Positions 2,436-30,007 of a DNA stretch of 30,007 nt are shown here, piece by piece. The DNA is taken from IMG/VR virus record IMGVR_UViG_2667527770_000007; one strand, 5' to 3'. Below the pieces are notes generated by a model. That model had not been told where the DNA came from and did not search any database. It saw nothing but the letters and a program-made list of their open reading frames with translations. Position 1 is the first letter of the stretch; the number at the start of each line of letters is the position of its first letter. A program made the position numbers and the translations under genes. The stretch comes from a virus (taxonomy: Duplodnaviria > Heunggongvirae > Uroviricota > Caudoviricetes).

Positions 2436-3632
<1,197 letters not shown>

Positions 3633-21194: not shown

Positions 21195-21947
21195 TTATCT
21201 TGTCACTTTTCTCAATTGTGTCTCTGCATATGCTTCTTCCTGCCAGCACTTTGTAACCAGTTTATCAATGACACCTGCATATCCTTTGTACCACTGATAA
21301 TCCGTCAGGTCCGGTACCAGCTTCTGGACATGATGCCGCGCCAGTGTGGTTGGTAAACGGCTAAACCGGTTTCCATTGCAACGCCCACAAATCTTATAAA
21401 CAGGCGTGCCATGAAGCCGGGTTCTTTTTTCATCCAGGACAATACCTTTACCCTTACACCCTCTGCACGCTGTGCTGACTTCTCCCTTACCATGACAATG
21501 CTGACATAGTTCCTTCACCCACTCCTCCTTGATAACAGATTCACCGCTTCTGGAGTGTTTCACCACTTCGCGCAATACATTATGAAATCCAGTACCAGCA
21601 CAATGCTCACAGCGAGCCTTACTTGCCGCAGACCTGGAATAATCAGCAAAGGCAAAATTCACAAGGTAAGGAATGATCTGTAGCCGGGTTTCTTCACTCA
21701 ATTTATTCAATGTCGGGTTATCCAGTGCCATCGCGTAATTGAGCAGACCTTCAATCGCAAACTGAGGATCCTGAACACCAACTTTTGCCAGGAATAAGGC
21801 AAAACCCAGTGGTGCTTTCGACTGCACCATCCCCTGCGCAGCCATCACATCCGTAATCGTTAAACCACCAGAGCCTGTCGCCGGTGCGTCATCGCTCAAT
21901 TTTGGAGATTTTGGGGAGTAATATTTTGGTAAGGCTTCAAGGTTCAT
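21195..21947 (-). CDS. Late-gene antitermination protein Q
   Basis: 250 aa with Cys-rich Zn-binding-like motifs (CEHCAGTG...CQHCHGKG...CRGCKGKG...CGRCNG); located upstream of the PR'/tR' module and lysis genes. Confidence 0.7.
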   Translation of the reverse strand: MNLEALPKYYSPKSPKLSDDAPATGSGGLTITDVMAAQGMVQSKAPLGFALFLAKVGVQDPQFAIEGLLNYAMALDNPTLNKLSEETRLQIIPYLVNFAFADYSRSAASKARCEHCAGTGFHNVLREVVKHSRSGESVIKEEWVKELCQHCHGKGEVSTACRGCKGKGIVLDEKRTRLHGTPVYKICGRCNGNRFSRLPTTLARHHVQKLVPDLTDYQWYKGYAGVIDKLVTKCWQEEAYAETQLRKVTR

Positions 21948-23786: not shown

Positions 23787-24176
23787 TCAGGCGGCTGCAC
23801 CCGCCGTTTTCTCGTACTTACTGATAGTGATCTCGACCTTCCCTTTCGGGATAACCGGTCCCCACTCCACCAGCATTCTTTTCACCTGACTGTCGTCTTC
23901 CCACACACCCGCATGGGTCAGGGCGTCAAACAGCGCCTTGTTATAGTTGTCCAGATCGCGGATCCGGTTATCCGGAGGAAACAACACGATCTCCACTGAA
24001 GCAGGTGCCGACGTTGGTTTCGGCAGACGACGTAACTGCTCAACTATTGCTGCGCACGCCGCGCTCTGGAATTTTCGCCCCGCCGCGCTTATCAGGCTCT
24101 TACCAGCAAACGCCCCTTTGTTGGGGTGTCGCCAGTACGTGTTCACGCTGGGCGGAAAAGGCAGGATCAGCTTCAT
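23787..24176 (-). CDS. rusA: Holliday-junction resolvase RusA
   Basis: 129 aa (MKLILPFPPSVNTYWRH...RIRDLDNYNKALFDAL...) matching the RusA family pattern. Confidence 0.85.
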   Translation of the reverse strand: MKLILPFPPSVNTYWRHPNKGAFAGKSLISAAGRKFQSAACAAIVEQLRRLPKPTSAPASVEIVLFPPDNRIRDLDNYNKALFDALTHAGVWEDDSQVKRMLVEWGPVIPKGKVEITISKYEKTAGAAA

Positions 24177-24499
24177 ACTTTCAGGTCCCTCTCATGTAAC
24201 CAGTGGGTTGCACGCAGCCTTGCGTTTTCCTCACCGGCAAGCAGTGCGCGGATAATCCCGACAGCCTCGCTGTCGTCGTCCTTCACCGCGGTATGAAGCG
24301 TTATCCCCCGGGCCACGCCACGCTTTATCGTGATGACGCCTTTTTTCTCCAGTGCGCGAAGATGTTCCACCGCTGCATTCACTGAACGGTATCCCAGCAT
24401 GGTTGCCACCTCCTGATTGGTTGGCGGGAAGCCACGTTCTTTCTGATAAGAAATCAGCATATCCAGCACCTGCTGCTGGCATTGAGTTAACGTCGTCAT
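24173..24499 (-). CDS. LexA-like winged-helix DNA-binding protein (regulator; no peptidase domain)
   Basis: 108 aa; N-terminus LTQCQQQVLDMLISYQKERGFPPTNQEVATMLGYRSVNAAVEHLRALEKKGVI resembles the LexA N-terminal DNA-binding domain. Confidence 0.5.
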   Translation of the reverse strand: MTTLTQCQQQVLDMLISYQKERGFPPTNQEVATMLGYRSVNAAVEHLRALEKKGVITIKRGVARGITLHTAVKDDDSEAVGIIRALLAGEENARLRATHWLHERDLKV

Positions 24500-25149
24500 G
24501 CCGCCATCTCCCTGACCAGTTTTTCCGCCTGCTGGCGAACCTGCGCCAGAAACGCCTCACCACATGCCTCAAGTTCATCGCGCCCGATGTAGCTGATTGC
24601 CGGTCCCTTCCAGGTCTTGTCGAAAACAGCAATAGCACCAGCGAAGAACGCTCCTGTCGGCACCTGCTTCTCATCCTTCGGGATAAACCAGGCAGGCAGT
24701 TCAAAACCAATACGCCCGCGAATAAAAGCAATATGGTCTGCATCTTCCGGCCACCAAACTTCGCTGGTGGCAGCTTTGATCAGGAAAACATAGCGCCCGC
24801 CCTTATCACGCATGGCACTGGCATGCTTCATGATGTAACGCATGCCGGTGATGTATTGCCCCTCATGCTGACTGGCGCGGCTGTATGGGGGATTACCAAA
24901 GGCAGCACCTTTAAGCTCCGCAAGACGTTCTGACCAGTCATGCGCCAGCGCGTTGTCTTCCGCCGTGTAATACGCAGCACATTTGGCGTTATCACCGTCA
25001 GTGAACAGATCCAGAACAAACGGGCCAAACAGGGTGTTAATTCCCCAGAAAATGTTGTCCGGCGTGCGCCACTGATCACCTACTTCCTTCAGTTCATGGG
25101 CTGGTTTGTTCCGCAGTTCCACCAGCGCCTGGCAATATTTATTACTCAT
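24496..25149 (-). CDS. Phage DNA N6-adenine methyltransferase (Dam-type)
   Basis: Contains the NPPY catalytic motif (AAFGNPPYS). Start taken at the internal ATG (MSNKYCQ...) that overlaps the upstream stop as TAATG; the ORF track extends it to 25182. Confidence 0.75.
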   Translation of the reverse strand: MSNKYCQALVELRNKPAHELKEVGDQWRTPDNIFWGINTLFGPFVLDLFTDGDNAKCAAYYTAEDNALAHDWSERLAELKGAAFGNPPYSRASQHEGQYITGMRYIMKHASAMRDKGGRYVFLIKAATSEVWWPEDADHIAFIRGRIGFELPAWFIPKDEKQVPTGAFFAGAIAVFDKTWKGPAISYIGRDELEACGEAFLAQVRQQAEKLVREMAA

Positions 25150-25643
25150 TAAGCCCCCACGTAATTCCCTGACAGATACCACTCATCACCCGATACAGCG
25201 CGCTTGCTGCTTTTCCGTAAACACTGCTCACGACGCGCCAGAAAATTGTTGCGTTCTGGCTGGGAGTGGCTTTCACGGAATGCCGCCATCCACACCGTTG
25301 CAGCACGACGGTATAAGCCCCTGGACTCCAGTTCTTCCGCCTGGCGGGTCAGGCACAAAATCACCCGGGGATCGTTAGTGCCGACATAGAAATTGCGCAC
25401 AGGTCTGGTTTCACGAACTGGTTGTGGTTCCGGCTCCTGCGCTCTCTCGGTCAGGCGTGGGAAATGTCTGCGTGTATCTCCTTCACAACGGTGAGCCACA
25501 CGCCCACTCTGACGTAACTTGCTTGCTGACTGCAGAACGCGCTGCCGTGAGTAACCTGCAAAAGCATCCGCAATGTCTCCGGAAGTACACCCCGGATGGG
25601 CTTCAATGAATTTCTGAACTTCATTCAAAAGACTCATGATCAC
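25149..25643 (-). CDS. PerC-like transcriptional regulator family protein
   Basis: 164 aa; C-terminal region (...LYRRAATVWMAAFRES...RREQCLRKS) resembles PerC/Pch proteins as I recall them. Confidence 0.4.
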   Translation of the reverse strand: MIMSLLNEVQKFIEAHPGCTSGDIADAFAGYSRQRVLQSASKLRQSGRVAHRCEGDTRRHFPRLTERAQEPEPQPVRETRPVRNFYVGTNDPRVILCLTRQAEELESRGLYRRAATVWMAAFRESHSQPERNNFLARREQCLRKSSKRAVSGDEWYLSGNYVGA

Positions 25644-26641: not shown

Positions 26642-26980
26642 CTATTTCCCTGAATTTACGACGAAACTGCTCGAGCGGACTGAAGCATTCATGTTCATAG
26701 CCTTCACGGAGGTAGATAACCCGTTGTGTTTCCGGCTCCCAACGAATGACTCTGACGGGCACTCCGTAGTGATCTTTGAACCAGCGGTTAACTTGTCGCA
26801 AAGGACTGTCTCCTTCTGCCGGTTGAAATCACCCACAGCCCACTCTGCAAAGCTGTGGGTTACAATTTCCCTGTCACCTGGTACATTCACTGCATAGCAA
26901 TACTCCACCTTCGCTTTTCCACCCGGTACAGGAAGCGCAATCAGTTGCGAGCGACGGTAGTGTGTTGTTAAACTGTTCAT
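26642..26980 (-). CDS. Hypothetical protein, probably frameshifted (C-terminal half better encoded in the overlapping frame 26589-26801)
   Basis: 112-aa ORF whose C-terminal 50 aa are low-complexity and Ser-rich, while the overlapping frame gives a protein-like sequence ([39 protein letters not shown]...) that only begins at a TTG. Confidence 0.4.
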
Positions 26981-27561
26981 GCGTTAGTTTCTCCACAACC
27001 AGAAGCAATCGACGCCACGACGCCCGGAGCTGCACACTCGCGGGCGTTACTCTTTTCCGGCGCACAAAAAACACGAAATAACAGTGTTAAATGCTCCTGC
27101 CACTTCGCCATTACTTGGTAGCTGTTCTCTTCGATTTGCTCACGCTCAGCTTGGTCAATAACTCCATCAGCAGTTGCCTTGCGTAAGTACTGGGAATGCT
27201 TGCCAATCCATTCTATTGACTCCATCAGCCGCTGATTAATGTCACCATTGTCAATGTCATCAATGACCACCAGCGGCACAAACACCCCATTACTACGACG
27301 GGCTATTGCATCTGTTACATGCCTGGTACCACTGGCATCCTGTAAAACCATGGCCCACTCAAGTGGAAAAATTTGATCCCCACCGCTACGCAGTCTGTTA
27401 TGCAATTGATCTTTTGCTGGGGTGATATCATCAGATTTATACAAACCAAGAATTTCTGCTGCTTCCTCATAGCCATGAGGTAAATCAGCAATCGTTCTTC
27501 GTATTGCTGCCACCAGCCATGCTGGTTGTTTATCAACTTTCCATTCAGGTTCTTTACCCAC
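26977..27561 (-). CDS. CII-position early regulatory protein (possibly YdaT-like)
   Basis: 194-aa ORF immediately downstream of the Cro-like gene. Assignment is positional; family membership not verified. Confidence 0.35.
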
Positions 27562-27588: not shown

Positions 27589-27786
27589 TTATGCCGCAGC
27601 ACTGTTAGTCTTTTGATATAAAGACACGTCAACTTTCAGTTTCCCGTTAGTAATTTTTTCTAACTGGTACGCTCGGCCTTCAGGAATAATCTCAGGCCAC
27701 TCTGAAACAGACGGATGCTTAATACCTAGGGCTTCGGCGGTTTTACAAACTCCGCCGAAATAATTAATCACGTCGGATTTCCGCAT
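27589..27786 (-). CDS. cro: Cro-like repressor (YdaS/Cro-type HTH)
   Basis: 65 aa (...FGGVCKTAEALGIKHPSVSEWPEIIPEGRAYQLEKITNGKLKVD...), divergent from cI across an operator region. Confidence 0.7.
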   Translation of the reverse strand: MRKSDVINYFGGVCKTAEALGIKHPSVSEWPEIIPEGRAYQLEKITNGKLKVDVSLYQKTNSAAA

Positions 27787-27818: not shown

Positions 27819-27883
27819 ATGTAGGATATCCAACATACCAATGTCAAGAATCCTACATGGGCATGTGGTAGGATTGCCTACAT
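27819..27883. promoter_or_regulatory. OR operator region: three operators with half-site ATGTAGGA (OR1 27819-27836, OR2 27841-27858, OR3 27863-27883); PR for cro on the minus strand (-35 TTGACA at 27843-27848, -10 TACATT at 27819-27824); probable PRM with cI starting at or next to the transcript 5' end
   Basis: Near-perfect 18-bp palindrome ATGTAGGATATCCAACAT and two related sites at ~22-bp spacing between the divergent cro and cI starts; consensus hexamers with 18-bp spacer. Confidence 0.7.
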
Positions 27884-28535
27884 GATGAACATGAGTGATC
27901 GTATTCGCCAAAGGCGAAAAGAACTGAACCTGACACAACAAGCACTGGCTGATTTGACTGGTGTGAACCGTGTCACGGTTACTGGATGGGAAAAGGACGA
28001 CTACCAACCAAATGGAGCCAACCTTCAAGCCCTAGCCAACGCACTTAAATGCGATCCTCTGTGGCTTGTTAGCGGAAAAGGCTCGCCTGAACCAAAGATA
28101 AATCTAAAACCTGAAATATTCGCAGTTAAAAAAGTCCCCCTCATCTCGTGGGTTCAGGCGGGTTCATGGACAATGACGGAGCCTGGTGTCAGGAAAGAAG
28201 ATGCTGAAGAGTGGGTTTATACTACCGCCCTTGTATCAGAAATGGCATTTGCACTACGGGTCCGTGGTGATTCAATGACCAATCCCCTCGGCTCACCATC
28301 GATACCAGAAGGTTCTATCGTTATCGTAGAGCCAGATATTATTGATACAGAGTGTATTAACGGAAAAATCGTTGTTGCCCATATCAATGGTGGGCAAGAA
28401 GCGACACTCAAAAAATTTGTTGAGGACTGGCCGAACAGGTATCTCGTCCCACTAAATCCTAACTATAAAACTATTGAATGCGGTGAGAACTGCAGAATAG
28501 TTGGTCTTGTCAAACAAGTAATAATGGATTTTTGA
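27882..28535 (+). CDS. cI: CI-type prophage repressor (HTH_XRE N-terminal domain + S24 LexA-like peptidase domain)
   Basis: 217 aa; HTH region (LNLTQQALADLTGVNRVTVTGWEKDD) and S24 autocleavage domain with GDSM Ser motif and downstream Lys (ATLKKF). Confidence 0.85.
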   Translation: MMNMSDRIRQRRKELNLTQQALADLTGVNRVTVTGWEKDDYQPNGANLQALANALKCDPLWLVSGKGSPEPKINLKPEIFAVKKVPLISWVQAGSWTMTEPGVRKEDAEEWVYTTALVSEMAFALRVRGDSMTNPLGSPSIPEGSIVIVEPDIIDTECINGKIVVAHINGGQEATLKKFVEDWPNRYLVPLNPNYKTIECGENCRIVGLVKQVIMDF

Positions 28536-28555: not shown

Positions 28556-28582
28556 AAAACCGGGGTATCCCCGGTTTTTTTA
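28556..28582 (+). terminator. Intrinsic terminator downstream of cI
   Basis: AAAA-CCGGGG-TAT-CCCCGG-TTTTTTT: perfect 6-bp GC stem, 3-nt loop and 7-T tract, 20 nt after the cI stop; A-tract upstream suggests it may act in both directions. Confidence 0.8.
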
Positions 28583-28597
28583 TGAGCCTATCTTTTT

Positions 28598-28651
28598 ATG
28601 TAGGATAACCAACATAAACTCTTGACACTCACATGTTGGATATCCTACATT
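28598..28651 (+). promoter_or_regulatory. OL/PL: two operators (28598-28615 ATGTAGGATAACCAACAT; 28633-28650 ATGTTGGATATCCTACAT) flanking a rightward promoter (-35 TTGACA 28622-28627, 18-bp spacer, -10 TACATT 28646-28651)
   Basis: The second operator is the exact reverse complement of OR1; promoter architecture is identical to PR. Seen directly in sequence. Confidence 0.7.
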
Positions 28652-28661
28652 TGTTTTTAGA

Positions 28662-28676
28662 GTTGTGGTGAATGCG
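28662..28676 (+). repeat. 15-nt motif GTTGTGGTGAATGCG, copy 1 (at the predicted start of the PL transcript), followed by hairpin GCGCA-GGCTGA-TGCGC
   Basis: Exact 15/15 direct repeat with copy 2 at 29317-29331. Confidence 0.5.
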
Positions 28677-28768
28677 CAGGCTGATGCGCGAAAGACATTG
28701 CAGCTATTGCGGAAAAGAGCTGTTCGGCGGGGCCATTAAACGCCCGTATCTGGAGGTTAAAGAACAAA

Positions 28769-29044
28769 ATGAAAGTCCAGATTTTAAACAATAGTGGTGA
28801 AGTCGTTTGGTCATACGACATAGCCGCTCCTGTAGATCAGAGCGGCGATAGCTGGACCAATGGGAAACATCAGATTATGGCTGGAGTTGTATTCTCTTTA
28901 CGCCGTGCTTTGGAACAGGCTGAAGTATTTCCATCAGACCCTGAATGGAAATGGCCTTTTTCTATTTGTCCAAATTCGGAGAGTACATTTCAGAAAATTG
29001 GTCAGAAAGTCGCACTCGAAGAGCATCAGCCAACTGTTTCCTGA
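28769..29044 (+). CDS. Hypothetical protein, first sizeable ORF of the PL (early-left) operon
   Basis: 91-aa ORF with GGAGG 12 nt upstream; its 3' end overlaps the convergent ORF 28962-29207 by 83 nt, so the C-terminal extent is uncertain. Confidence 0.4.
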   Translation: MKVQILNNSGEVVWSYDIAAPVDQSGDSWTNGKHQIMAGVVFSLRRALEQAEVFPSDPEWKWPFSICPNSESTFQKIGQKVALEEHQPTVS

Positions 29045-29207
29045 TTTTTTCAGGTAGCTCGTCGGCATCGCAGAAACAACAACGCTCGATCATGTTGAAA
29101 GCCGATTCGTAGAACTGTTTCTGCTGAGTGTCGCTGAGACAGGAAAAGAGCGACGTTACGATGATTTTATTAATTGCATTATCAAGTTCTTTTTCATCAA
29201 AAGTCAT
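28962..29207 (-). CDS. Hypothetical protein encoded antisense to the PL operon
   Basis: 81-aa ORF (MTFDEKELDNAINKIIVTSLFSCLSDTQQKQFYESAFNMIERCCFCDADELPEK...) with a good RBS (AAAAGGAAAA, 6 nt before ATG). Confidence 0.45.
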   Translation of the reverse strand: MTFDEKELDNAINKIIVTSLFSCLSDTQQKQFYESAFNMIERCCFCDADELPEKIRKQLADALRVRLSDQFSEMYSPNLDK

Positions 29208-29316
29208 TTGATTTTCCTTTTATGTATACGGGCTTAAAAGGATACCACCGAGCCTGAAGTGGTGAAAAGACAGGCACATAACAGCTAAGTATTTTCAACC
29301 AAAGAGAATCCTTAGC

Positions 29317-29331
29317 GTTGTGGTGAATGCG
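29317..29331 (+). repeat. 15-nt motif GTTGTGGTGAATGCG, copy 2, at the start of a structured non-coding region
   Basis: Exact repeat of 28662-28676. Confidence 0.5.
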
Positions 29332-29463
29332 GCTCAGCGCACGCGGGTTAAGGTTGAGGCTGACAGTCGACCTTCTGTGGATACCCACCCGTCTGGTGTG
29401 CAACCTTCGCCAGGCACCGGGAGGCACCCGGCACCACAACTTTATGCTGTGTGTAGTCCCGGC

Positions 29464-29596
29464 GGTACCAGTTTGTACCCTTGCTTCCGGCTGGTACCGT
29501 CCTTTTTACAAAACAGAGAAGAGCATCACCGGACGACGGGCTCATAACCCAATCCATCCGGGCGGCTGCCACCGCAGGTGTTCTTCTCTGTTTTGT
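29464..29596 (+). ncRNA. Candidate structured RNA element: 8-bp stem (GGTACCAG, 29464-29471 / 29491-29498) followed by a 15-bp perfect inverted repeat (ACAAAACAGAGAAGA 29508-29522 / TCTTCTCTGTTTTGT 29582-29596) enclosing a 59-nt GC-rich insert
   Basis: Inverted repeats seen in sequence. The region has no convincing coding frame (the ORF-track frame 29327-30007 has an Arg/Cys/Trp-rich, non-protein-like N-terminal 100 aa). Function unknown. Confidence 0.35.
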
Positions 29597-29644
29597 GGAG
29601 AAACTAATCGGCCTTGCAGGGTCGATATGATGAGGAGCAGCAAA

Positions 29645-30007
29645 ATGGCTAGCGAACGCAGTACTGATGTGCAGGCATTTATCGGGGAGCTGGACGGCGG
29701 CGTATTTGAAACCAAAATCGGCGCAGTTCTCAGTGAAGTCGCTTCCGGTGTGATGAACACGAAAACCAAAGGTAAGGTCTCACTCAACCTGGAAATCGAA
29801 CCATTTGATGAGAACCGTGTGAAAATCAAACACAAACTCTCATATGTTCGCCCGACTAACCGCGGGAAAATTTCCGAAGAAGACACCACCGAAACGCCGA
29901 TGTATGTCAATCGCGGTGGTCGCCTGACTATTCTGCAGGAAGACCAGGGACAGTTACTGACTCTTGCCGGTGAACCTGACGGAAAACTCCGCGCAGCAGG
30001 TCGTTAA
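29645..30007 (+). CDS. Hypothetical early protein (120 aa), function unknown
   Basis: ATG at 29645 preceded by GAGGAG with 6-nt spacing; stop TAA at 30005-30007. The ORF-track N-terminal extension to 29327 is rejected. No family recognised. Confidence 0.55.
   Translation: MASERSTDVQAFIGELDGGVFETKIGAVLSEVASGVMNTKTKGKVSLNLEIEPFDENRVKIKHKLSYVRPTNRGKISEEDTTETPMYVNRGGRLTILQEDQGQLLTLAGEPDGKLRAAGR

Follow-up and report, generated by a model that had tools for sequence, protein, structure and literature searches.

The 30,007-nucleotide (nt) stretch of DNA analysed here (IMG/VR record IMGVR_UViG_2667527770_000007, Caudoviricetes; hereafter the window) comes from an SfV/CPS-53/e14-type lambdoid prophage whose right operon lies on the minus strand. 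The repressor gene cI (27882-28535), which encodes the Pfam domains HTH_3 and Peptidase_S24, lies on the plus strand, so that the DNA downstream of it is the early-left side. An earlier note on this DNA had proposed the approximately 1 kb following cI (28598-29640) as a candidate novel moron or exclusion module. We found that this interval is very probably the mosaic head of the early-left (PL) operon and that it is made up of three things: the relic of an RNA element (28662-28747), a cassette of two small genes (28748-29243) and a conserved leader (29284-29644), which ends immediately ahead of the gene yfdP.

Composition of the interval after cI

The features on which the earlier note had built its proposal, namely cI, a terminator, a PL promoter which is a copy of PR and the open reading frames (ORFs) beyond it, were all present where it had placed them. 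The cI terminator (28556-28581, plus strand) consists of the hairpin AAAACCGGGG-UAU-CCCCGGUUUU followed by a U-run and folded with a free energy (dG) of -15.2 (z score -3.3); the SfV annotation has a terminator at the equivalent hairpin. UUUU also follows this hairpin on the minus strand, indicating that it may act in both directions, and from its sequence it could stop transcripts of the antisense gene B described below. OL/PL (28598-28659, plus strand) was identified by a promoter scan and by repeats linking it to the PR region. Its -35 hexamer TTGACA (28622-28627) and -10 hexamer TACATT (28646-28651) are 18 nt apart, and hexamers and spacing are identical to those of PR (27847-27818). The PL and PR regions form a 40-nt inverted repeat which is 83% complementary, and operator repeats of 18-19 nt are found at 27819, 28598 (28598-28616) and 28633 (28633-28651). 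PL transcription probably starts near A28659 or G28660.

We compared the interval by BLAST to phages and to 5426 complete E. coli genomes and found that it falls into blocks which occur independently of each other. The first block (28663-28747) is the RNA relic, which elsewhere is also found alone, on phage-plasmids of ~95 kb. The second (~28748-29243) comprises the two genes and was present in 425 of the genomes, counting those in which at least 80% of it was found. The first part of the conserved leader (29245-29460) was found in most relatives with the type of RNA which we call class 2 below, and the second part (29461-29640) nearly always adjoins yfdP. The PL of the window was found in 126 of the genomes and the complete arrangement in only 90. 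The sequence shares 99% identity with phage vB_EcoM-720R4 over its entire length, and with phage SfV it does so from 28767 onward; in SfV, the 91-amino acid (aa) ORF is orf33 and yfdP is orf32. A prophage of E. coli CT02 (NZ_CP081698) matches the interval at 99.5% identity. The sequence is therefore not new, having been public since the SfV genome (2002, GenBank).

L005, a sibling prophage in E. coli 01_3327, shares cI and PL with the window and lacks the cassette; the window matches it up to 28747 and then diverges. Comparison with the siblings showed that an ancestral order persists in them, in which PL is followed by a cloverleaf RNA beginning with the first transcribed base and then by an intrinsic terminator, a long hairpin and yfdP, and that in the window a recombination at the junction 28747/28748 has swapped the 3' part of the leader RNA for a block from an SfV-like phage. 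In this block the cassette is truncated at its 5' end and is accompanied by a second cloverleaf RNA, which is complete and of the STnc100/PasD type, and both SfV and vB_EcoM-720R4 have the cassette and the RNA of the window. The first 13 nt of the cassette (ATCTGGAGGTTAA, 28748-28760) are exactly the 3' end of a gene for a 67-aa protein with a ClpX-C4-type zinc finger, which in L236 (E. coli ECE218; 1298-1501) lies ahead of the first cassette gene, indicating that the window has a 5'-truncated form of a cassette which begins with the zinc-finger gene. The left boundary of the exchangeable cassette (28748-29243) is given by the junction with L005 and L236, and the right boundary by the onset of conservation with e14 and Klebsiella phages.

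The view of the earlier note that the locus is variable cargo was borne out: the gene pair is absent from the close relative L005, lies at a module boundary and has a distribution (425 genomes) different from those of PL (126) and of the complete arrangement (90). In e14 and phiES15 the same slot is taken by an unrelated convergent pair, ymfJ/ymfI, and in ST64B by a non-coding leader RNA of ~700 nt. The slot is thus a hotspot for small sense/antisense gene pairs. As annotated, ST64B (L234 1100-1862) has ~700 nt without an annotated gene between PL and sb37, its homolog of yfdP. The first part of this leader (ACAGGCAGGACGCCCACGAAGUAGCC...) is common to the PL leaders of SfV, e14 and L236.

The gene pair of the cassette

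Gene A (28769-29044, plus strand, 91 aa) is sense to PL and is the first gene of the PL transcript; it corresponds to SfV orf33. Gene B (28962-29207, minus strand, 81 aa) is antisense to PL. The two genes converge and overlap by 83 base pairs (bp; 28962-29044). The ribosome-binding site of gene B (AAGGAAAA) lies 5 nt ahead of its ATG, in agreement with its earlier description as strong. Both proteins belong to existing PHROG families of unknown function, A to phrog_3195 and B to phrog_3311. Homologs of A with 57-68% identity were found in Salmonella, Yersinia and unassigned prophages, and homologs of B with 56-64% identity in Salmonella, Klebsiella and Yersinia. We examined the pair in four genomic contexts, and in these A came first after the repressor and PL and B converged on it with an overlap of ~75-85 bp. 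The pair recurs in these prophage contexts with at least three different immunity regions: of the YdaS/YdaT type in L006, with a P22_Cro-type region, followed by kilR and gam, in Salmonella (L007, L008), and with a homologous S24 cI, followed by yfdP, in Yersinia (L232, L233).

Substitution patterns indicate that A and B are real genes under purifying selection. Outside the overlap, the ratio of non-synonymous to synonymous substitution rates (dN/dS) of A was 0.12-0.28, and for B the proportion of non-synonymous differences (pN) was 0.20-0.25 vs a synonymous proportion (pS) of 0.68-0.88. Inside the overlap the ratio rose to 0.41-1.21 over the two frames, as is expected where the DNA is doubly constrained. 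The conservation of these ORFs among relatives, which the earlier note had named as a check, was thus confirmed.

Searches for function gave the following results. The family of A has only 19 representatives among 1.84 billion proteins (exhaustive profile search), none of them with a known domain, and the AlphaFold2 model of A was unusable (predicted local distance difference test score (pLDDT) 44), being too poor for a structure search. B, which has an invariant CCxC motif, was modelled by AlphaFold2 as a three-helix bundle (pLDDT 78), and a Foldseek search with this model against the PDB and BFVD gave no match below E = 1. Neither protein matched a Pfam or NCBIfam family, and PDB profile searches gave no meaningful match. 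In PADLOC, A had no match and B only noise (SspC, E = 0.035, 10 bits). The profile and fold searches proposed in the earlier note therefore yielded no function for the 91-aa and 81-aa proteins beyond membership of their PHROG families; they did identify its third candidate, of 120 aa, as YfdP (phrog_204), which has no Pfam match. The observation that the locus holds no nameable early-left gene held up for A and B, which by Pfam and PHROG are neither N, kil, cIII nor recombination genes. A consensus scan and an alignment of four upstream regions revealed no sigma-70-like promoter for gene B.

A conserved hairpin, ACCAC-N10-GUGGU (29244-29263, minus strand), precedes the ATG of gene B by ~35 nt. 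This hairpin was found in all four aligned regions upstream of B (E. coli, Salmonella, Yersinia and one unassigned), with covariation to ACCGC/GCGGU in L006, and also ahead of the unrelated antisense gene ymfI in e14 (L004 ~3003-3025) and phiES15 (L235 1393-1412). The 20-nt hairpin and its flanks (~45 nt) are 95% conserved in Escherichia and Klebsiella phages of differing cargo (H78-H85), and in every case the antisense cargo gene follows closely after the hairpin, which may be an element of the 5' untranslated region, an operator or a module-boundary sequence.

The arrangement in e14 and in the gp10 region of phiES15 is like that of the window, in that a gene sense to PL faces an overlapping antisense gene and is followed by the hairpin and a cloverleaf leader. 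However, we found no homology of A to YmfJ or of B to YmfI by BLASTP or hhalign, and a common origin of the two pairs was rejected. The cassette also resembles rexAB and sieB of lambda and sieB of P22, which are likewise accessory genes beside the immunity region that differ among related phages. Unlike these it has no demonstrated promoter or terminator of its own and shows no homology to them; lambda rexAB lies inside the cI transcript, whereas the cassette of the window is downstream of PL.

This resemblance raises the question of whether the cassette, and especially the antisense gene B, could be a moron which is expressed in the lysogen and serves to exclude superinfecting phages or to defend against phages. 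As variable cargo, the cassette occupies a hotspot already known, immediately behind PL; selection has conserved both genes, B is opposed to PL and could be expressed while PL is repressed, it is preceded by the conserved 5' hairpin and a good ribosome-binding site, and other antisense genes (ymfI) are found at that place in e14 and phiES15. We nevertheless consider such a role unlikely, as neither protein has a PADLOC, Pfam or NCBIfam match or any similarity to RexA, RexB or SieB, B is predicted to be a soluble-looking three-helix protein without a structural relative in the PDB or BFVD, no sigma-70 promoter was detectable for it, A is clearly early lytic rather than lysogenic, and neither SfV orf33 nor its partner has a known phenotype. 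Nothing found here favours an exclusion or defence role, which remains a guess without a supporting signal.

A toxin-antitoxin or abortive-infection function of the pair is very improbable, as is a role of A as an N-like antiterminator protein acting on the RNA. The two small genes are always found together and A, being the first PL gene, stands where N would. Against this, their convergent overlap is unlike the operons of type II toxin-antitoxin systems, no toxin-antitoxin, abortive-infection or PADLOC family was matched, A has no arginine-rich motif, and the siblings L005 and ST64B have the RNA and the terminator without A, so that A cannot be required for readthrough. We therefore regard A/B as a dispensable accessory pair and as an uncharacterised addition to the accessory gene units found at the immunity-region hotspot; the region is a real lead, without evidence for a new exclusion system.

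The leader RNA and its relatives

The sequence between the cassette and yfdP is strongly structured: 29296-29650 folds at -148 kcal/mol, compared to -121 +/- 5.6 for shuffled sequences (z -4.8), and none of 100 shuffles folded as well. The earlier note was right about this folding of ~300 bp, but had counted the structured DNA as part of the cargo; it is a conserved leader of the STnc100/PasD group, common to phages with and without the cassette.

The leader begins with a hairpin, P0 (GCUAAG...CUUAGC, 29284-29316, plus strand), just 5' of the cloverleaf. Its counterpart in other members of the family, compared in ST64B, phiES15 and class-1 loci (see below), is the hairpin GGUAAGAGCA.../...UGCUCUUUCC. 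The cloverleaf itself (29317-29440, plus strand), which we call class 2, consists of a closing helix P1 (GUUGUGGUG/CACCACAAC), GAAU, a hairpin P2, two internal hairpins and a last hairpin P4 (CCGGG-AGGCA-CCCGG, 29417-29431), which abuts the 3' strand of P1; P1 covaries in the class-2 alignment. It is followed by a single-stranded linker with the conserved motif UGCUGUGUGUAGUC (29441-29460, plus strand), located where the seed UGUGAG sits in PasD. ST64B, phiES15 and several class-1 loci have kept this motif before their terminators, and by analogy to PasD the linker is a candidate seed or Hfq region.

An intrinsic terminator comes next (29461-29507, plus strand), with an 11-bp stem (GGCGGUACCAG/CUGGUACCGUC), a 19-nt loop and CUUUUU (dG -20.8, z -3.7). 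It corresponds to the terminator part of the STnc100 model; e14 has kept the stem with a different loop, and L005, ST64B and phiES15 have equivalents. Beyond it lies an 89-nt hairpin (29508-29596, plus strand) with a closing stem of ~22 bp (ACAAAACAGAGAAGAGCA.../...UGUUCUUCUCUGUUUUGU) and a small branched top (dG -47.8, z -7.3), a candidate site for RNase III or other processing from its structure. L005 and ST64B have kept this hairpin before yfdP, and e14 before xisE; phiES15 lacks it. The leader ends (29609-29647, plus strand) with a small hairpin (29609-29624), the Shine-Dalgarno sequence GAGGAG (29632-29637) and the ATG of yfdP at 29645. The yfdP gene (29645-30007, plus strand, 120 aa) is annotated as such in RefSeq genomes, and the Yersinia homolog of YfdP has the Pfam domain PF27127. 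A 226-aa ORF (29327-30007) in the same frame was rejected as an artefact, being yfdP extended upstream through the RNA leader.

The series of cloverleaf, linker motif and terminator precedes varied genes: yfdP in the window, L005 and ST64B, xisE in e14 and kil in phiES15. The e14 leader (L004 3079-3390), which is 90% identical to 29239-29634 of the window, lies just upstream of xisE and is annotated there as "YmfH". K-12 ymfH overlies this leader RNA, and by its sequence is unlikely to be a protein-coding gene; our literature search on ymfH returned nothing relevant.

At an E-value threshold, the Rfam model RF02076 (STnc100) matched 29295-29510 on the plus strand over its full length (model positions 1-206; 40.5 bits, E = 4.4e-7), while at the gathering threshold Rfam gave no match anywhere in the window. 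The structural features of STnc100 are all present by the model alignment, the minimum free energy fold and the class-2 alignment, including the helix UGGUG...CACCA, UGAAU, the 22-nt core CACCGGGAGGCACCCGGCACCA, which is identical to the Rfam consensus, and the terminator hairpin. The leader RNA thus belongs to the STnc100/PasD group as a divergent member, and heading the early-left operon is a new position for that group.

STnc100 and PasD are small RNAs (sRNAs) of prophages which have been linked by structure (bioRxiv 10.64898/2026.05.13.724894). The canonical STnc100 follows stx2B at a distance of 75 nt and overlaps EcOnc27, which is bound by Hfq (PMC12370729, PMC12711010), and both PasD and STnc100/EcOnc27 are Hfq-bound sRNAs (PMC8550237; PMC12711010; bioRxiv 10.64898/2026.05.13.724894). 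PasD1 (NC_011601 1060260-1060432) and the seed UGUGAG are described in the supplement of PMC8550237. We found that PasD1 lies between Q and a holin gene, has its own promoter and follows the plan of the window RNA, with the seed in a single-stranded stretch ahead of the terminator. STnc100 and PasD1/PasD2 (EcOnc13/EcOnc27), all of which are carried by prophages, share with the window the closing helix, (U)GAAU, a first hairpin, variable hairpins, CCGGG-AGGCA-CCCGG as the last hairpin, a single strand and a terminator. The window copy differs from STnc100 (after stx2B) and from PasD (flanked by Q and the lysis genes and having a promoter of its own) in that it heads the early-left operon without an evident promoter; the sequence of its linker, and hence of the putative seed, also differs, and a Hfq-bound sRNA is known only for the PasD/EcOnc27 copies. 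A second STnc100/PasD-like element was sought downstream of Q in the window phage and none was found.

The relic at PL (28662-28747, plus strand) belongs to a second class of cloverleaf, class 1. By comparison with L005 it is only the 5' 86 nt of a 133-nt element, retaining the 5' strand of P1 (GUUGUGGUG), AAU, the P2 hairpin GCGCA-GGCUGA-UGCGC and part of a variable arm, and missing P4 and the 3' strand of P1. In L005 the intact element, GUUGUGGUG-AAU-GCGCAGGCUGAUGCGC ... GCCGGAGAUCAGCACCGG-UCACCACAAC, lies directly at PL and is followed by the terminator, the long hairpin and yfdP.

The 40-codon, Cys-containing ORF (28672-28794, plus strand) which the earlier note had listed among the contents of the locus coincides with this relic. 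Its AUG sits within the conserved GAAUGCG motif of the RNA, and the ORF which begins there has from 6 to 100 codons across class-1 elements; it has 25 codons in intact copies of the relic element and reaches 40 in the window only through the junction. In natural copies 8 of 8 substitutions were non-synonymous, including ATG>AGG, Cys>Phe, an early stop and a G>A/C>U pair which is compensatory in an RNA hairpin. These changes, in which both the start codon and the Cys were lost, point to a misread piece of RNA element, and probably no gene. The string CSYCGK of this ORF resembles the start of the ClpX zinc finger, but a ClpX C4 zinc finger was rejected, as there is one CxxC only, no match to any Pfam family, the ClpX zinc finger included, and no conservation of the frame. 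The likeness to CSFCG in the zinc-finger protein of L236, which has a different sequence, appears to be coincidental.

Class-1 elements proved to be widespread. IMG/VR scans for the 5' motif and for the last hairpin of class 1 each gave more than 120 loci (L009-L228). When the last hairpin and the closest GGCUGA upstream of it served as the sole anchors, P1 paired at 7 of 7 positions at fixed offsets in 75 of 89 distinct elements, with 39 different sequences. All nine P1 pairs showed double substitutions in an alignment of 30 sequences, and no shuffle matched the observed covariation. The common plan is a four-way junction with a hypervariable P1 of 7-9 bp, an AAU linker (71 of the 89), the P2 hairpin seen in the relic, a hypervariable arm of 30-150 nt and a P4 (GCCGG-AGAUCAGCA-CCGGC) which leads straight into the 3' strand of P1. 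The loops of P2 and P4 are complementary (GCUGA/UCAGC) and co-vary in L114 (GCGAU/AUCGC), although with very few informative variants this evidence is thin.

Pieces of the element were found by BLAST in 231 phage records and also in hundreds of viral contigs, from temperate and virulent phages of several genera, including phages of Klebsiella and other Enterobacterales, Pseudomonas and Aeromonas; class 1 had no Rfam match. Besides its position at PL in the sibling prophage (L005 2623-2757), it lies between PR'/qut and tR' in HK620 (L229 2501-2590), in the ban operon of P1 beside transfer RNA (tRNA) genes and under an annotated 'plp' ORF (L230 ~2001-2027), and in tandem within tRNA arrays on phage-plasmids of ~95 kb (L130 2700-3130).

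The shape and company of these elements suggested that the cloverleaf might mimic a tRNA and act as a signal for processing or stability, with RNase P or other tRNA-maturation enzymes cutting the early-left transcript to release a stable RNA. P1 of 7-9 bp is acceptor-like, with a linker of 2-3 nt, a P2 of 4-5 bp and a 5-bp P4 stacked on the 3' strand of P1; the P2 and P4 loops are complementary and change together in L114. Moreover, copies occur inside tRNA gene arrays, 17 of 119 elements (~14%) lie within 1 kb of a tRNA gene, and in several copies N-CCA directly follows the 3' strand of P1, as in tRNA genes. We doubt this explanation, however, since ARAGORN called none of the elements a tRNA, the P4 loop of 9 nt has no T-loop consensus, the pairing between the loops rests on so few variants, and the class-2 copy in the window has neither complementary loops nor CCA. 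ARAGORN found no tRNA in the window or at the elements of L005, L114, L103, L079 and L130, and identity with a tRNA was rejected, only the overall topology being tRNA-like. In L114 (191-345) the variable arm holds two perfect hairpins like a tRNA T-arm, GGTTCGA(A/C)TCC.

A terminator at the entrance of the early-left operon

An intrinsic terminator stands between PL and all further early-left genes of the window phage, which is a lambdoid phage with Q and without N. The region showed no N-like, arginine-rich product, and we also looked in the leader for the lambda N/nut arrangement, a boxA (CGCUCUUA) followed by a boxB hairpin. In relatives a boxA-like UGCUCUUU is found just 5' of P1, yet it is paired in P0 with covariation, and the window has AAUCCUUAGCG in its place. 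The hairpin 5' of the cloverleaf (e.g. in L090, L100, L042 and L095, at L234 1452-1514 and at 29284-29316 of the window) has a conserved 3' strand, (A)GUGCUCUUUCC, which reads like the boxA of rrn or lambda and pairs and covaries with GGUAAGAGCA; in the window it is degenerate. The linker GCUGUGUG(U/A)AGUCUU ahead of the terminator resembles the G/U-rich boxC sequence of lambda, and it also resembles the PasD seed. We rejected a riboswitch-like attenuator, as pairing of the cloverleaf or linker with the terminator's 5' arm, looked for in the window, ST64B and phiES15, was limited to matches of 4-6 nt which were not conserved.

The right operon has the usual features of a lambdoid phage. On the minus strand it encodes Cro (27589-27786; P22_Cro), a CII-like protein (26977-27561), an O-like replication protein, Dam, RusA and Q (21195-21947; PF03589), and Q is followed by an ordinary PR' and tR' at ~21160-21065. 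It also contains a stand-alone protein with a LexA DNA-binding domain (108 aa; 24173-24499) and a protein with a PerC-like transcriptional activator domain (164 aa; 25149-25643). In L005, a C4 antisense RNA (82 bits) and isrK (59 bits), both above the Rfam gathering scores, lie at 393-581 beside a gene for a Rha-family regulator, and this is an immI-like antirepressor control region.

We propose that the leader serves at once as an sRNA gene and as a gate for transcription of the early-left operon, beside an accessory gene pair, a reading to which we give about an even chance of being right. Once cI is inactivated, PL would transcribe A and then the RNA module, and the terminator at 29461-29507 would halt part of the transcripts. 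The halted transcripts would yield a stable, folded RNA, which in its single-stranded UGCUGUGUGUAGUC and its U-tail looks like an Hfq-dependent sRNA such as PasD or STnc100. Polymerases which read through would give rise to the mRNA running from yfdP to xis/int, possibly cut at the 89-nt hairpin. B, read against PL, would be the only part of the locus which could be expressed in a lysogen, and convergent transcription from PL together with an RNA duplex of 83 bp would silence it, such that expression of A and of B would be mutually exclusive. A precedent for such a gate is given by the PR'-6S RNA-tR' region of lambda and by early-terminated transcripts of the StxS type, where a short, structured, promoter-proximal transcript also ends at a terminator gating a long operon; unlike that case, the operon here is early-left, no Q-like factor is known at PL and the structure is unrelated to that of 6S RNA.

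A number of points weigh against this reading. We infer the PL start, the efficiency of the terminator, the processing and the binding of Hfq from sequence. The STnc100 match of 40.5 bits lies below the gathering score of 47, and the cloverleaf by itself is only marginally more stable than shuffled sequences (z -1.9). The complete cloverleaf lies 660 nt from PL and after the hairpin P0, so that a discrete sRNA would need 5' processing or a promoter which we did not see; the sole candidate, AAGACA-17-TATTTT, is weak. For B, too, the search for a promoter was negative. Only ~30% of class-1 elements in phage contigs have a terminator within 160 nt, so that the cloverleaf must have a role beyond that of the body of a terminated sRNA. 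Finally, the passage of enough polymerases through the terminator is unexplained, and the equivalent terminator of phiES15 is strong.

The last of these points would be met if the cloverleaf were a cis-acting, protein-independent antiterminator, doing the job of HK022 put with an unrelated structure and riding with RNA polymerase through the terminator that follows and later early-left terminators. The put RNA suppresses downstream terminators in cis in a manner which depends on the zinc-binding domain of RNA polymerase's beta' subunit. The phages considered here have no N, and in lambdoid phages the element is always closely followed by an intrinsic terminator standing in the way of essential early-left genes, the strongest case being phiES15, ahead of kil and gam. 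As described for HK022 (PMC9378689), putL and putR resemble the elements of the window and L005 in being structured RNAs which lie at the start of the PL transcript or close to it, with terminators downstream, in a lambdoid phage that has no N, and the L005 element begins at the first base of the transcript as putL does. A put-like mechanism has also been suggested for phage LLS, which is likewise without N (PMC12315714) and has a short match to the leader (H75). Nonetheless, put consists of two stem-loops of ~70 nt and an RNA triplex, while the element here is a four-way junction of 120-135 nt; putL and putR, compared with the window by eye and without an alignment, showed no similarity in sequence or architecture, and a put-like RNA in that sense was rejected. 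Elements also occur where Q already antiterminates (HK620, PR'/qut to tR'), in tRNA arrays and in virulent phages, and PasD and STnc100 accumulate as terminated sRNAs, indicating that termination after the element is efficient in lysogens. On balance we think antitermination by the cloverleaf improbable.

Irrespective of this mechanism, the anatomy described here corrects the reading of the region in many genomes, as the short Cys ORF, "ymfH" of e14 and the ORFs drawn across the leader in phage records are probably misread RNA. It also defines phrog_3195 and phrog_3311 as a unit which can be deleted or expressed as a whole, making an accessory function at the PL hotspot testable. The STnc100/PasD group of sRNAs belongs to a much wider set of phage cloverleaf RNAs. 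It is a rather long shot that the cloverleaf is one of a large, unrecognised family of tRNA-shaped phage RNAs and that, where it heads the early-left operon, it acts in cis on the elongating polymerase or on the terminator as a second class of antiterminator RNA, unrelated to put, but this would explain how phages of the SfV/e14/ST64B/phiES15 type express their early-left genes without N. An RNA of the STnc100/PasD type and its terminator stand at the entrance of the early-left operon of phages which lack N, and the question of how polymerase passes them should be easy to approach by experiment in the closely similar e14 leader of K-12.

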